In this document: positions 241-11,334 of the stretch, in pieces
Numbering within the stretch: the stretch's first letter is position 1
How the letters are laid out: the number at the start of each line of letters is the position of its first letter
From: a virus
Taxonomy: Duplodnaviria > Heunggongvirae > Uroviricota > Caudoviricetes
DNA: 11,334 nt
Strand: one strand, 5' to 3'
Virus record (IMG/VR): IMGVR_UViG_2551306674_000009
Program-made: the position numbers and the translations under genes
Notes under the pieces: model-generated
The model's database searches: none
Seen by the model: the letters and a program-made list of their open reading frames with translations, nothing else
What the model was told of the DNA's origin: nothing

Positions 241-330
241 GCTTTAACCGTTATCATTTTCCGGCTATCCGTTATAAAGCTGGTGGATGTTCCCCGATAT
301 GGGGATCCCCACCTACCGGAATTTTTGCCA

Positions 331-580
331 GGTTAAATGTTAACCGCTGCCCTGTTAACATTTTTACCAAAAAGGTAGTTAACATTTTTTGCACGTAACC
401 AGACGAATCATAAAGACAAAATCAACAACAACGCTTCATCAGGCAGTTAACATGTTAACTACTACGAAACGGTAATTTTTTCTCTGCGTGAGAGGGGGCG
501 CGGTGTCCAGCTTGTTCGTTGTTCGTAGCTAACCACTCCCCCCCATACCGGATTTTTTTTCCGGTTAACAGTTAATCAGG
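331..580. promoter_or_regulatory. Cluster of GTTAAC(A)-containing motifs including a perfect 16-bp palindrome AGTTAACATGTTAACT (446-461)
   Basis: At least six TGTTAAC-type motifs within 250 bp (331-345, 352-366, 378-391, 446-461, 561-577) plus hairpins ccccgatatgggg (289-301) and accgga-T8-ccggt (547-565). Confidence 0.35.
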
Positions 581-1530: not shown

Positions 1531-1735
1531 GGGTCCTTCCTGGAATTATGGCCCGTTACGGGGCGGCGACCTCGCGGATTTTATCTGTTTATGAAAATTT
1601 TCTGGCAAAAGTCAGATCCGTTCTTCTTCTCTGTAACAGATTGTTTAACAATGAAAACATTAAAAAAAGAAAGGATCTGACACGAGGCATTTTAGCCAGA
1701 AAATGCCATTATCAGATCCTTTCTCATTTTTGTTC
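1531..1735 (+). other. Lambda-type cos site (cosQ-like, cosN 1561-1572, cosB with three R-like elements)
   Basis: Exact lambda cohesive-end 12-mer GGGCGGCGACCT at 1561-1572, followed by cgcggattttatctgtttatgaaaatttt (compare lambda CGCGGGTTTTCGCTATTTATGAAAATTTT); R-like elements at 1614-1626 (+), 1667-1686 (inverted) and 1714-1725 (+), core cAGATCC(g/t)TTCT. Confidence 0.75.
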
Positions 1736-2423: not shown

Positions 2424-2470
2424 CGCGAGGTCGCCGCCCCGTAACGGGTCCATATGCCGGAAAGGACCCG
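2424..2470 (-). other. Second cosN-containing repeat (cosQ-like + cosN + start of cosB), inverted relative to 1531-1577
   Basis: Reverse complement of GGGCGGCGACCT at 2428-2439; on the minus strand reads cgggtcctttccggcatatggacccgttacg|GGGCGGCGACCT|CGCGCGTTTTCACTATTTATGA, closely matching the remembered lambda right-end/left-end junction. No R-like elements between it and terS. Confidence 0.7.
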
Positions 2471-2499: not shown

Positions 2500-2913
2500 T
2501 CAGATGGTTTTCAGTATGCGATCGATGTCGCCGTCATCGCCCGGGTTTCTGCCATCGTATGCCATGCCAGCTGATACGGCTTGCGGGCTGTGCATGTCCA
2601 TAAAGTTTTCAAAGGCTGCGGTAAGCTCCGGCGCAACCCTCGGACGTTCCTGCTCTATGGTCATGCTAAGGATGCTTTTAGCCGTACCAACATCGATACA
2701 AGGCACGTTTGCCATTGCACGTAACAGCGGCTGATAGTCGCCAGATTCATCAAGCGCCATAATCGCATCAGCGCGCGGCTTGTCCTGCTCTTCCAGTTTG
2801 TTAAGTTGATATATGGCCTCGTAGGTTGATAACCCTCTGTCAGCCATTGCCCGCGCTTCGGCTTTAAATTTACTCGCCAGCGGTAGCGTCATGATGCTTT
2901 CATTCGTTGCCAT
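2500..2913 (-). CDS. Hypothetical protein (137 aa), last gene of the head operon
   Basis: ORF with AGGGGG SD; sits after the gpD-like gene and before a terminator. No confident family assignment. Confidence 0.55.
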   Translation of the reverse strand: MATNESIMTLPLASKFKAEARAMADRGLSTYEAIYQLNKLEEQDKPRADAIMALDESGDYQPLLRAMANVPCIDVGTAKSILSMTIEQERPRVAPELTAAFENFMDMHSPQAVSAGMAYDGRNPGDDGDIDRILKTI

Positions 2914-3272: not shown

Positions 3273-4328
3273 TTAAGCAATTTTGACAGTAACAAATTTG
3301 CGAATATCTGCCGGAACCGGCTGCGGTGCGCTGTGCGTCTGCACGTACTCAATCGCCGGATCGCCGTCCTCAATCCAGTTTTTCGGGTAGTACATGTTTT
3401 GCGTTGCCTTCGTTCTTACTGCGTCCTGATCCATAATCGCACCATAGGCCACCAGCCCTTTATTGTTGGTGTTGCCCAGGACCAGCAAATCAGGTTCAAG
3501 GAAATATTTTTCTGTGCCGTCGCTGTCGGCGTATTTGCCGGAATAGACGATAAGGGCAATATCGCCCAGATAGCCTTTAAAGCTCACCACTTCGCCCAGG
3601 TTTTTACAGGCCAGTTCGGCGGCGGATTCTGAACCACGGGAAAGATCGTACAGCTCACGGAATTTTTTAAAGCTGCGTAACGTGCGCCATACCTCAGCGC
3701 CCATAATCATGACGTTTGCGGGGCAACCAGCCTGATCAGCATAAAGCTCGATGTCATAGATTGGATCGTGCATCTCTTTATCCTGCTCGGACCATTTTTT
3801 ACCCTTGGCCTGCTCTATGATGCAGTTTTCCGGTATTTTCCAGTCTATTTCATAGCGTTCTATGCCTTCGCCCTCAATAATGTTTTTTCCGGTCGTTATC
3901 GCATTCACCGCCAGCCATTCCACGCGCGCTTTAATGGCGTTTACCTGGCGGCGCATGTTGCCAGTAATCAGGCGCATACGTCGGTAGGTAGGGTCGTTAA
4001 GCTGTGCCGGATCTTCTCCAGCCATGCGCATGATGGTTTTTGTTGGATCGATTTCGTGCTTTGGCTTCATGTAGCCAGGTTTAATCGTGCTGGTTTCGTA
4101 TCCTTTATCGCGCTGTACCTGGCTGCCAACCATAGGCGAACAAAACGCCGACATGGTGACTTCTTCAATGTCCAGGGTATCCAGCATGATGTTTTGGGTG
4201 CTGAATGTCGCCACGTTCGGGAAAAACAGCGTGATAAACAGCGGACTGAATTTAAATTCCGCAATATCCCCGCGATTCAGGTACGCAAAAAGCTGGTTAG
4301 TGTTAAGTGCCGTTGCTTTGCCTGCCAT
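3273..4328 (-). CDS. Major capsid protein, lambda gpE-like
   Basis: 351 aa; conserved blocks versus lambda gpE (FKFSPLF, PGYMKPKHEIDP, DPTYRRMRLI, YPKNWIEDGDPAIEY...SAP). Confidence 0.9.
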   Translation of the reverse strand: MAGKATALNTNQLFAYLNRGDIAEFKFSPLFITLFFPNVATFSTQNIMLDTLDIEEVTMSAFCSPMVGSQVQRDKGYETSTIKPGYMKPKHEIDPTKTIMRMAGEDPAQLNDPTYRRMRLITGNMRRQVNAIKARVEWLAVNAITTGKNIIEGEGIERYEIDWKIPENCIIEQAKGKKWSEQDKEMHDPIYDIELYADQAGCPANVMIMGAEVWRTLRSFKKFRELYDLSRGSESAAELACKNLGEVVSFKGYLGDIALIVYSGKYADSDGTEKYFLEPDLLVLGNTNNKGLVAYGAIMDQDAVRTKATQNMYYPKNWIEDGDPAIEYVQTHSAPQPVPADIRKFVTVKIA

Positions 4329-4534
4329 TATTCACCCCCATAATTTTTATGCATCCCAAGCGCCGCAAGTAAATAAGAGCGCACAAGTGAACCTATCGAC
4401 GGCTCCGGCGTCATCAGCGGATCCAGTCCAGCCGCTACGCCAGCCTCATAGTTTTTTTTGTGGCGCTGCTTGAGCACCTCCACGATTTCGGGGCTTATGT
4501 ACACCGAAACACCGCCTTTTTTCTCTTCTGCCAT
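4328..4534 (-). CDS. Small protein (68 aa), first gene of the head operon
   Basis: Stop overlaps the capsid start (TAATG); AGAGGA SD; beta-strand/helix pattern (VSVYISPEIVEVLKQ) could be RHH-like. Function unknown. Confidence 0.5.
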   Translation of the reverse strand: MAEEKKGGVSVYISPEIVEVLKQRHKKNYEAGVAAGLDPLMTPEPSIGSLVRSYLLAALGMHKNYGGE

Positions 4535-4567
4535 AGTCAGAAATTCCTCTTTGACTTAAAAAATCAC

Positions 4568-4618
4568 AACTGGATGTTCATCCAGTTATGATTATAATCA
4601 TGATTGCATTTTGCGCAA
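4568..4618 (-). promoter_or_regulatory. Head-operon promoter with SOS-box-like operator
   Basis: Minus strand -35 TTGCGC (4613-4618), 16-bp spacer, -10 TATAAT (4591-4596); palindrome aACTGGATGAACATCCAGTt (4568-4587) just downstream of the -10 has the CTG-N10-CAG LexA-box geometry. Confidence 0.45.
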
Positions 4619-4696
4619 TAAAATTGAGTTGTGTTGCAAATTATGAAATGGTTTACAGCAACAGTAGTCACCATGCTGTTAACCTCGTAAGCAAAA

Positions 4697-4735
4697 GCCC
4701 GATAAGCTTCCTCCTGTACTTATCGGGCTTTTTTT
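4697..4735 (+). terminator. Rho-independent terminator (plus strand; weak on minus)
   Basis: gcccgataag-N12-cttatcgggc followed by TTTTTTT on the plus strand. Confidence 0.6.
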
Positions 4736-4741
4736 GGGCGC

Positions 4742-4763
4742 AAAAAAGCCGGATTGCTCCGGC
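4742..4763 (-). terminator. Rho-independent terminator after the 74-aa gene
   Basis: Minus strand: gccggagcaatccggc followed by TTTTTT; same sequence family as the terminators at 2471-2494 and 5105-5128. Confidence 0.7.
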
Positions 4764-4783
4764 TATGTGTGCTGTGTGCTGGC

Positions 4784-5008
4784 TCAGTCTCTGATCTCTT
4801 TCAGAAATTCTATCAATGCATCTATCTGTTCAGGATTTACCGCCAGCATTTCACCGGATAGAGCACATCTCACAAAACCATGCTGATCCTTTTCAATCAG
4901 TGCGCCCGTCTCCAGGAATGCGCGGTAATCATTGATGCTCATCGTCTCCATGTTGTCAGCATGGTATTTATCACGCTGTTTTAATATCTCATCAAATTTC
5001 ATCGGCAT
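4784..5008 (-). CDS. Hypothetical protein (74 aa), stand-alone moron-like gene
   Basis: AGGAAA SD; terminator upstream (5105-5128) and downstream (4742-4763), so apparently its own transcription unit between the replication and head modules. Confidence 0.55.
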   Translation of the reverse strand: MPMKFDEILKQRDKYHADNMETMSINDYRAFLETGALIEKDQHGFVRCALSGEMLAVNPEQIDALIEFLKEIRD

Positions 5009-5104
5009 TGTTTTTTTCCTCTGTTGTGTCTGTTTGTTTCAGATAGTAACTATGCCTGACCGTGACGAAAACCCGGTAATGCGCCATACCGTTTCAACTG
5101 GTGC

Positions 5105-5128
5105 AATAAAAGCCGGATTTCTCCGGCT
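5105..5128 (-). terminator. Rho-independent terminator ending the replication/regulatory operon
   Basis: Minus strand: agccggagaaatccggct followed by TTTTATT, directly after the PerC-like gene stop. Confidence 0.65.
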
Positions 5129-5134
5129 GTTTGA

Positions 5135-5407
5135 TTAGCTGTCCTGGTAATTGCGCCATATTTCATCACCAGCACCATCTATACCCATTTCGGCATAAGT
5201 GCGATCGACTGCCTTTTTCAGGTCTCCGAAATTATCCGGCGGCTCCGGTGCCCTCTGTGCCTTCCTTGAACATTCCAGCCGTCGCATCGTGATGTGATGC
5301 CGTTCCTTGTCTGTCTCCACCAGCTGCATGACTTCACCCCATCGCGCCGCCGCCCTCCGGTAAAAGCCTTTCGCCTCCAGTTCCTCCGCTATGCGGTCAT
5401 GTACCAT
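5135..5407 (-). CDS. PerC-family transcriptional regulator-like protein
   Basis: Motif AEELEAKGFYRRAAARWGEVM resembles the PerC/Pch signature as I recall it; start placed at the internal ATG (MVHDRI) with a GAGGGGG SD rather than the longer ORF-track start at 5527. Confidence 0.55.
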   Translation of the reverse strand: MVHDRIAEELEAKGFYRRAAARWGEVMQLVETDKERHHITMRRLECSRKAQRAPEPPDNFGDLKKAVDRTYAEMGIDGAGDEIWRNYQDS

Positions 5408-9430: not shown

Positions 9431-9460
9431 CACGAACAACCGCGAACAAGTACAAACAAA
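9431..9460 (+). repeat. Three tandem 10-bp units (tcacgaacaa / ccgcgaacaa / gtacaaacaa)
   Basis: Same NNACGAACAA motif and 10-bp phasing as 201-240; lies just 3' of alpA. Confidence 0.55.
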
Positions 9461-10095: not shown

Positions 10096-11334
10096 TCAAG
10101 AATTTTGAGAGTAAATTCGCGGGGTCATAACAACGATTTTTTCATCATTGTTCTGGAGAAGCTCGAGACGCTCAACCCATAGATTAAGAGCGTCACGTTT
10201 TGCATCGAGATAACGGGAGTGATTATAGACTCGTTGCATTCCTGGCAACTGGTGCGCGGTTAGCTGCTCCACTACATGAGGATCCACGCCTAAATCGTTC
10301 AGCATCGTTGTAAACGTGTGCCGGATGTCGTGCAACGTCCAGGGGGCTTGATTAATACGTCTGTGTGCCGTTCTTCCGTACTCTGATACGGATGATTGCC
10401 CTTTCAGTTCTCCGAGCAATAATCCCGTGTGCCTGTTCTGCTCCACCAGCTTCGTTACGAACGGCAAGATCGCTTCCGGTATTGGCCTGAATATTGCTAC
10501 CTTCGTTTTGCTGTGTTCTTTCGGCACGGTCCAGAGCATTTCTTTAAAATCCCATTCCTGGAGCTCAGAGCGTCTTAGCTCAGTGGTACGACATCCGAAG
10601 ACAATCAGGAGGCGAATCAGGGCGCTGTAGTACGGTGGGTAAATTTTTTCATCCAGGGCGCGGAGTAATTCCCCAAGCTCCTTGTTTGTTAGTACGCGCT
10701 CGCTTATTTCTGCTTTTTTCCCAACATCACCTACAACCATATCATCTAGAACGTTGGTAATTGCGTAGCGTCGTTTGCGGCAGTACTTAAGCGCCTGCTT
10801 GCATACCTGTAACAAAAATCCTGCTGATACCGGATTACGCTTAGCAAGCTGATCAAAACAGGTCAGCCAGTGGCGTAGCTCGCATTTTTCCAGCGGCATA
10901 GCACCAATCTGGCTGATTATGTGTGTATTGATCCGGCTCTTCAGAGATTCGTAGTCTGTGCGCTTTTCCTTCGCGTACGATTCAAGCCAGTAAGTGAGCG
11001 CTTCCTTAACCGTAACAGGTGATAACGCTTCCTGTACGGTGTGATTAAGCTCATGGCGTGGATTTTTCCCCTCAGCAAGCCAGGCGCGACACTGCGCCGC
11101 TTTTTCCCTGGCTGCTTTCAGGCTCAAATCAGGATAATTTCCCAGCCTCAGACGTTCAGGGGATACCTTCCTGCCTGTTCCGGCCCTGTAAGTGAAATAC
11201 CAGGTTAACAGGCCATTGGTTGAATGCCTTACGCTAAGGTTGCCACCATCATTAAAAAAGGTGTTTTTTGTGGTTGGTGATCCGCTTAATTTTCGTAAAA
11301 GAGTGTCGCTAAGTCTATGAATTGCCCTGCTCAT
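10096..11334 (-). CDS. int: Tyrosine integrase, P4-type
   Basis: 412 aa; N-terminal arm-binding-like region, C-terminal catalytic residues (HDIRHTF ... VYNHSRY). Start codon is at the last bases of the window, so the true 5' end could lie beyond the edge. Confidence 0.85.
   Translation of the reverse strand: MSRAIHRLSDTLLRKLSGSPTTKNTFFNDGGNLSVRHSTNGLLTWYFTYRAGTGRKVSPERLRLGNYPDLSLKAAREKAAQCRAWLAEGKNPRHELNHTVQEALSPVTVKEALTYWLESYAKEKRTDYESLKSRINTHIISQIGAMPLEKCELRHWLTCFDQLAKRNPVSAGFLLQVCKQALKYCRKRRYAITNVLDDMVVGDVGKKAEISERVLTNKELGELLRALDEKIYPPYYSALIRLLIVFGCRTTELRRSELQEWDFKEMLWTVPKEHSKTKVAIFRPIPEAILPFVTKLVEQNRHTGLLLGELKGQSSVSEYGRTAHRRINQAPWTLHDIRHTFTTMLNDLGVDPHVVEQLTAHQLPGMQRVYNHSRYLDAKRDALNLWVERLELLQNNDEKIVVMTPRIYSQNS

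Follow-up and report, generated by a model that had tools for sequence, protein, structure and literature searches.

The window, by which we mean the whole analyzed stretch of 11,334 nucleotides (IMG/VR record IMGVR_UViG_2551306674_000009), opens at the start codon of clpS and closes at the start codon of an integrase gene. Its match to K-12 is confined to positions 1-106, upstream of clpS, and an inserted island begins at 107. The stretch at 331-580, which an earlier note had singled out, is therefore island DNA and not host DNA. The island is an EcCICFT073-type PICI: its length falls within ~10-15 kb, int occupies one end, alpA and a primase/replication gene are present, and the late region, which contains cos and homologues of capsid genes, shares 89-93% DNA identity with that of EcCICFT073. 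Helper-induced excision, replication and high-frequency transfer would be predicted for an island of this type. Two lambda cosN sites, inverted relative to each other, lie one on either side of a Nu1 homologue (Table 1), and the island seems to carry its own small terminase where EcCICFT073 has Rpp. The integrase-distal end of the island is a 1.1-kb non-coding tail (107-1214), and it is here that the element described below is found.

Table 1. Features of the island and of its GTTAAC element; positions are those of the window, and distances from the core follow the phage orientation
Feature	Position	Strand	Remarks
Left flanking direct repeat CTACCGGAATTTTTGCCAGGTTAAATGTTAAC, ~32 bp	313-344	.	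With degenerate doublet GTTAAA-T-GTTAAC
GTTAAC site 5	339-344	-	Farthest from cut; +153 from start of conserved core
GTTAAC site 4 and T-tract GTTAACATTTTT	354-365	-	+138/139 from core
GTTAAC site 3 and T-tract GTTAACATTTTT	378-389	-	+115 from core
Perfect 16-bp palindrome AGTTAACATGTTAACT, GTTAAC sites 1 and 2	445-460	-	+39/+47 from core
Conserved 38-bp cosN block TAATTTTTTCTCTGCGTGAGAGGGGGCGCGGTGTCCAG	473-510	-	0-2 mismatches to phages with 33%-diverged spacers
A/T tract adjoining cut	476-481	-	Within the 473-510 block
Predicted 10-nt 3' cohesive end AGGGGGCGCG (CGCGCCCCCT on phage strand)	493-502	-	By homology to Lys8385Vzw ends
TTGTTCG, two copies	512-525	+	Island-specific replacement of phage flank beside cosN
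C7 run (G-run on phage strand)	538-544	-	-46 from core; candidate cosQ-like subsite
Right flanking direct repeat ATACCGGATTTTTTTTCCGGTTAACAGTTAAT	545-576	.	Holds sixth GTTAAC (564-569)
Exact lambda cosN 12-mer GGGCGGCGACCT	1561-1572	+	Lambda-like cosB (CCGTTCTTCTTC) to right
Nu1-type small terminase, full-length, 184 aa	1752-2306	-	36% identity to lambda Nu1, E = 1e-33
Second exact lambda cosN 12-mer GGGCGGCGACCT	2428-2439	-	Island-specific cosB (GGTTTTGTTGTTCGC) leading into Nu1-like gene
137-aa protein	2500-2913		Weak match to C-terminal part of head maturation protease family
gpD-like decoration protein	2926-3261		Gene annotation
Lambda gpE-like major capsid protein	3273-4328		Gene annotation
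PerC	5135-5527		Gene annotation
Primase/AAA_25 protein	6162-7562		Gene annotation
AlpA	9492-9686		Gene annotation
Integrase	10096-11334	-	Gene annotation

Between 331 and 580 the hexamer GTTAAC starts six times (at 339, 354, 378, 446, 454, and 564), and the remaining 11.1 kb of the window holds three more (1150, 4678, and 11204). Local base composition predicts 0.08 copies for this interval and dinucleotide shuffling predicts 0.22, and none of 5,000 shuffles contained at least six. Density reaches 24/kb in the cluster versus 0.27-0.55/kb elsewhere in the window and across 79 kb of E. coli comparison DNA. A non-random cluster of at least six TGTTAAC-type motifs, as the earlier note had described, is thus borne out against both base composition and E. 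coli DNA. The palindrome and direct repeats reported with it are also real, but their positions had been set one base too high, the palindrome beginning at 445. The description of the stretch as non-coding holds as well. None of the open reading frames in 107-1214 and none of six small ones in 272-1348 matched a PHROG family, and a structured RNA or tRNA was discarded as a reading of the stretch because Rfam (at the gathering threshold) and ARAGORN gave no match.

The tail contains a number of other features. Hairpins of the form CCCC-N-GGGG lie at 292-304, 631-642, and 914-926, where 0.05 would be expected in 107-1214, and those at 631 and 914 are copies of one 14-mer. A fourth that had been listed with them, at 1183-1194, has only CCC/GGGG. 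These hairpins had been grouped with the GTTAAC cluster, but they are separate features, none of them lying within the element that is shared with phages. The EcCICFT073 counterpart of 631-642 reads CCACCAATGGTGG, in which a compensatory C>A / G>T change keeps the stem, so this hairpin may be under selection; lacking a T-run, the CCCC/GGGG hairpins are not classic terminators. A perfect 20-bp palindrome, GAGTTGCAGATCTGCAACTC, occupies 771-790. Farther along, a 133-bp tandem duplication (829-957 and 952-1090, with 92% identity over 73 bp) carries AGCGCAATTTTGCGCT in each copy, a terminator-like hairpin with a T-rich tail behind it (866-881 and 999-1014). The last 16 bp of the gene at 1215-1496 (TCAACCAGTTACCGCC) occur at 893, 1026, and 1207, with one occurrence in each duplication copy. 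At 1040-1074, a 35-bp segment matches at 91% the 3' part of roi/antirepressor (KilA/Bro-type) genes from many lambdoid phages and is probably a gene remnant. The whole 1.1-kb tail was also considered as an array of cos sites from multiple phages, a reading that was rejected because 575-1220 gave only weak matches of 35-54 bp to phage roi/antirepressor genes.

Two further repeat families lie near the island end. A tandem pair of ATTAACTACACC at 174-197 is conserved at the extreme end of clpS and phoQ islands, including EcCICFT073, and is a candidate for the arm-type sites of the integrase. CGAACAA repeats phased at 10 bp occur near the island end (204, 214, and 224; region 204-230) and again just downstream of alpA (9433 and 9443, with a degenerate third; 9431-9460). 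In inverted form, as TTGTTCG, the same heptamer stands twice directly beside the cosN block of the GTTAAC element (512-525), and the 2428 site has one copy within its cosB (2370-2376). CGAACAA may be recognized by a protein of the island, AlpA for example.

A search of a phage collection matched window positions 335-511 to 94 phage records at ~77-80% identity, including BP-4795, YYZ-2008, 2851, 1717, Lys8385Vzw, many Stx1a/Stx2c/Stx2a converting phages, and PPompW prophages. In every record whose gene neighborhood was checked, an HNH endonuclease gene lies on one side and terS-terL on the other, with the match filling the space between them, and this is where HK97-like phages classically have their cos. 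TerS here belongs to the Terminase_2 family and is present in 95 records of the collection, a near 1:1 correspondence with the DNA element. Alignment of the window to these phages is sharply bimodal. Compared with YYZ-2008, mismatches number 0/30 in the GTTAAC sites and 2/39 in the block at 473-511 versus 36/108 (33%) in the spacers (Fisher p = 2e-7). Site 5 is the same in every GTTAAC-type phage and in all 11 island copies, while the sixth GTTAAC, inside the right flanking repeat, is GTTAAC in only 5 of the 11. By this homology, the GTTAAC stretch is a copy of the cos site of HK97-like, HNH-dependent E. coli siphophages. A lambda-type cosB was rejected as a reading of the element, since the IHF consensus found in lambda cosB is absent from it and the true lambda-type cos sites are those at 1561 and 2428.

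The position of the cut can be predicted from Lys8385Vzw, for which cos packaging with 3' cohesive ends CGCCCCCCCT was reported from PhageTerm (PMC7946995); in the literature we found on these phages, PhageTerm end-mapping is all there is for the cos site. The GenBank record of this phage is broken inside the conserved block, ending in ...GGACACCGCCCCCCCT (...CGCCCCCCCT) and starting with CTCACGCAGAGAAAAAATT (CTCACGCAGAG). Window positions 493-502 are identical to the corresponding sequence in YYZ-2008 and have one mismatch to the cohesive end of Lys8385Vzw, and the top-strand nick is predicted between 492 and 493, a placement transferred by homology from one PhageTerm analysis of one phage. 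Read in phage orientation (minus strand), the island copy has the G-run (538-544), the cut block (510-473), the palindromic doublet (460-445), and then three sites with A/T tracts (389-339). The window contains no HNH or Terminase_2 gene, and the matching TerL is also absent. The cos is therefore naked, which fits a copy borne by a satellite, and it would have to depend wholly on the terminase and HNH protein of a helper.

These findings bear on the functions that had been proposed for the cluster, namely an operator or a recombination site. That it is a cluster of recognition sites for a DNA-binding protein still stands, but the homology to a phage cos region takes the place of the operator function. 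An operator cluster for a transcription factor encoded by the island or the host would account for sites that are palindromic, repeated, and accompanied by phased A/T tracts. We nevertheless consider it very unlikely. There is no promoter-like site in 331-580 (within 1-1600 the sole one, on the minus strand, spans 699-727), the cluster contains the mapped cohesive-end sequence, phages without the island regulators have the same sites between their late genes, and EcCICFT073 has the same regulators (AlpA and PerC) without the cassette. That the sites are att or arm-type recombination sites for the island integrase or excisionase would agree with the location of the cluster ~230 bp from the host junction, but we regard it as extremely unlikely. 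EcCICFT073 and most relatives are without the cluster yet have the same island terminus, including relatives that integrate at the same phoQ site, so it is dispensable for integration. Better arm-site candidates are found at 174-230, conserved in all three islands compared, and the homologues of the cluster are located in phage packaging regions and not at phage att sites.

The GTTAAC element forms a cassette of ~235 bp bracketed by 32-bp direct repeats, with a total extent of ~313-576. At the matching place, EcCICFT073 has a single hybrid copy of the repeat and no cassette. EcCICFT073 adjoins phoQ without the cassette, whereas the JNEC-KY176 island has it at the same phoQ site. Across complete genomes, full-length island-type copies were found in 51 of 5,426, and these are integrated at clpS, phoQ, and yejO, with the cassette lying ~230-320 bp inward of the host gene annotated at the flank. 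A marker gene of the island family occurs in ~1,390 genomes, and the cassette is by comparison a minority accessory module. Phage-type copies of the element are present in ~1,200-1,300 genomes, with up to nine per genome, which makes potential helpers common. Among the 50 carrier genomes listed, 30 have no second, phage-type copy (~15 of the 30 being one clone), and the other 20 have further matching places, a number that includes partial matches and clonal genomes and is uninformative on the co-residence of island and helper. Viral contigs ending at the island cos would have spoken for packaging; three IMG/VR contigs have the island-specific junction, and none of them starts at it.

Two of the relatives show additional features around the island. 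JNEC-KY203, the closest relative of the island in a complete genome, is interrupted by IS1 and adjoined by Mu-like transposition genes (19322-20019 and 24945-28518), and its island copy is probably immobile. In JNEC-KY176, type I restriction-modification genes (S subunit and methylase) start ~650 bp past the cassette (3408-5257), so the tail beside the cassette appears to be a cargo slot.

Such a distribution could also be produced by an inert relic, that is, a fragment of a prophage cos that was gained by recombination and is no longer used. The cassette is rare in its family, its presence is polymorphic, and the flanking direct repeats could delete it. Some copies also have a changed site or overhang base: site 3 has mutated to GGTAAC in the KY176 island, and a G>T change at 495, inside the predicted overhang, is found in 5 of 11 island copies. 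Against this, hardly any change is seen in the five sites or the cut block despite the 33% divergence of the spacers from phages, and the island copies at three integration sites have kept them, a pattern not expected of a neutral relic. Among the 11 island copies (clpS, phoQ, and yejO), 4 of 68 constrained positions are variable versus 18 of 109 spacer positions (p = 0.03). Because sites and spacers contrast in this way among phages as well as among islands, a relic is unlikely.

The same architecture can be followed into other genera. We compared 18 prophage loci of other Enterobacterales (Atlantibacter, Kluyvera, Enterobacter, Citrobacter, Erwinia, Proteus, and others) whose TerS is ~40% identical. 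The core CCCCCTCTCACGCAGAGAAAAAATT was located in 14 of the 16 loci examined and is conserved in prophages of Atlantibacter, Kluyvera, Enterobacter, Erwinia, and Proteus. A G-run is found at -43 to -48 in every phage with a located core and in both island copies scanned. GTTAAC stands at +47 across genera (+41 in Proteus and +46 in one Erwinia), usually with GTAAAC before it at +39, giving a doublet. In the other genera, about 25 bp downstream of the cut block, this doublet, GTAAACATGTTAACA, overlaps the start of terS (GTAAAC ATG TTA ACA), so that only ~40 bp separate the cut from terS. The terS start of the E. coli phages is displaced by a further 200 bp, yet the distance from doublet to cut is unchanged, and further GTTAAC sites follow at +115, +138, and +153. 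The island copy has the doublet at the cut distance found in phages, and there is no terS there. A short ORF left upstream of the shifted E. coli terS, which some records label 'putative DNase', is probably spurious.

This positional invariance, together with co-variation between the sites and the helix-turn-helix of TerS, leads us to infer that the GTTAAC array is the binding place of the helper TerS. Residues 1-56 of the phage TerS match Pfam Terminase_2, and residues 10-52 align weakly to the DNA-binding domain of the SF6 small terminase, which places the helix-turn-helix at ~18-39. In the STEC1587 prophage all five sites have changed, to GTTTAC, GTAAAC, ATAAAC, and ATAAACATGTTTAT (towards TAAACA/GTTTAC). 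Its TerS has eight substitutions in the first 69 residues, and seven of them fall within 18-34, in the helix-turn-helix (K18R, S21A, I23V, A24E, A29E, T31S, and V34C). Lineages with SEKSAR(S/C)KG, among them distant genera with SEKSARSKG, have GTAAAC at non-coding sites, and lineages with KTAxVKG (the E. coli Stx type, Proteus, and Pantoea) have GTTAAC. The co-variation of motif and helix is suggestive of TerS as the reader, with few independent events behind it. The 80 IMG/VR loci returned for this comparison are all at least 95% identical in TerS and are uninformative in this respect; 47 of 48 unique upstream regions have identical five sites. The binding protein, to which the earlier note had given no name, can now be given a likely one: a Terminase_2-type small terminase of the helper phage.

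Another assignment of the sites could be made by analogy with HK97, where one A-tract, +15 to +29 from the cut, is the only site bound by the small terminase (PMC11331095). The A-tract at 476-481 is equally conserved, and it could be the real TerS site, with GTTAAC read by something else. The island's own Nu1-like protein was rejected as the binder, since no similarity could be detected between it and the TerS found alongside the element in phages, and EcCICFT073 is without both the protein and the cassette. If TerS is the reader, fixed GTWAAC sites and a co-varying helix-turn-helix make a testable recognition code for a small-terminase family. In such a code, residues 31 and 34 of the helix-turn-helix would specify the array, with T and V reading GTTAAC and with S and either S or C reading GTAAAC; we propose this tentatively, as part of the joint reading given below.

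Our main reading is that the cassette is a copy of a helper cos carried by an EcCICFT073-type PICI and used by the helper terminase for packaging. We give this a probability of roughly 0.78, on the basis of homology to phage cos, selective conservation of subsites, the mapped ends of one phage, and the PICI context. Under this reading, a helper of the HK97-like, HNH-dependent type would induce excision and replication of the island. The helper small terminase (Terminase_2, with an N-terminal helix-turn-helix) would assemble on the island cos, contacting the GTTAAC sites (339, 354, 378, and 446/454) and/or the A-tract beside the cut, and would position the helper large terminase and HNH protein. 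The conserved block would then be nicked to leave 10-nt 3' overhangs (493-502), and the C/G-run at 538-544 may act as an upstream cosQ-like element. Packaging would run leftwards in window coordinates, with DNA entering the head by way of att and then int and onward along the concatemer, and would stop at a downstream cos once the head is full. The 11-kb island would be packaged as a 4-5-mer, as would be needed to fill a head of 45-60 kb. Counting against the main reading, the head genes of the island are lambda-type and not helper-type, packaging would have to be multimeric, the cassette is rare in its island family, and 30 of the 50 listed carrier genomes have no second, phage-type copy. The altered site 3, the overhang change at 495, and the rival A-tract site count against it as well.

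A helper cos could also be kept mainly as a decoy that titrates or misdirects the helper terminase, lowering phage yield without spreading the island. This would explain the same sequence conservation, and PICIs are known to interfere with helper packaging (PMC6739421). Nothing points specifically to such a role, however, and a concatemer that replicates with a working cos on it would enter particles in any case, so that a decoy overlaps with packaging from the pirated site; as a separate explanation we consider it quite unlikely.

If the pirated cos is used for packaging, the island would have two routes into particles. Lambda-like helpers would act through the two lambda-type cos sites and the island Nu1-type subunit, and Stx1/Stx2c-type siphophages would act through the pirated cos. 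From the signals that it carries, the island can probably be packaged by two unrelated kinds of phage. We extend this to a joint reading, which we put at a little below even odds. The island would be a dual-system satellite that Stx phages can mobilize, having a repeat-flanked HNH/Terminase_2/3'-overhang cos that is gained and lost, in addition to two lambda cos sites, Nu1, and the GTWAAC code.

The GTTAAC cos family is present in about a quarter of complete E. coli genomes. If the site works, islands of this type could travel with lambda-like phages and equally with Stx1/Stx2c-type prophages, which are very common, and satellite traffic, along with any defense or virulence cargo, would be linked to the induction of Shiga-toxin phages. 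It would also be a natural case of a satellite gathering the packaging signals of unrelated terminase systems as swappable cassettes. In the papers searched we found no account of an HNH-type cos in an E. coli PICI, nor of a PICI that combines lambda- and HK97-type cos. Satellite-borne helper cos sites are already known from SaPIbov5 and EcCICFT073, and what is described here would be another instance of cos piracy by a satellite.

The closest likeness is to the cos of Lys8385Vzw, BP-4795, YYZ-2008, 2851, and 1717, which is homologous to the island copy and shares with it five GTTAAC sites, their spacing, and the 38-bp block, with a cohesive end that differs by 0-1 base. The island copy differs in that it is without the HNH and terS flanks, has TTGTTCG twice in place of the HNH-side flank, has spacers that are ~33% diverged, and lies within 32-bp direct repeats. 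The resemblance to HK97 is one of arrangement. HK97 has the same HNH-cos-terS order (HNH gp74 and TerS gp1), a 10-nt 3' overhang, a G9 run ~49 nt before the right end (a G-run precedes the cut by ~46-49 nt in both), and, close to the cut on its other side, an A-tract inside the left end. HK97 has no GTTAAC repeats, however, its cut sequence is unrelated, and its TerS binds one site (+15 to +29; PMC11331095). The cosQ-cosN-cosB of lambda is alike in logic: one element precedes the nick site, and small-terminase sites are repeated from there towards terS. Lambda differs in its 12-nt 5' overhangs, the sequence of its R sites, and its IHF site, and the terminase families are unrelated; the island Nu1 homologue is likewise unrelated to the Terminase_2 TerS of the GTTAAC-cos phages.

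Among satellites, EcCICFT073 is the model Gram-negative PICI, with two lambda-type cos sites (cos1/cos2), Rpp, and the helpers lambda and phi80 (PMC6092414, PMC6739421). It shares with the present island its family, its gene order, and two lambda-type cosN sites flanking one gene, but it is without the GTTAAC cassette and has the unrelated RppA (144 aa) in the slot of the island Nu1 homologue. For cos piracy itself the nearest parallel is SaPIbov5 of Staphylococcus aureus. Its helpers are phi12 and phiSLT, the phage HNH, TerS, and TerL are needed, and a second packaging route is possible for islands of this type (PMC5052747; Quiles-Puchalt 2014, as cited in PMC6092414). Both islands are satellites with a bare HNH-type helper cos and without the matching terminase or HNH. 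They differ in host, sequence, and TerS family. The second route would differ as well, being in this island a lambda-type cos with a Nu1 homologue of its own and not pac.
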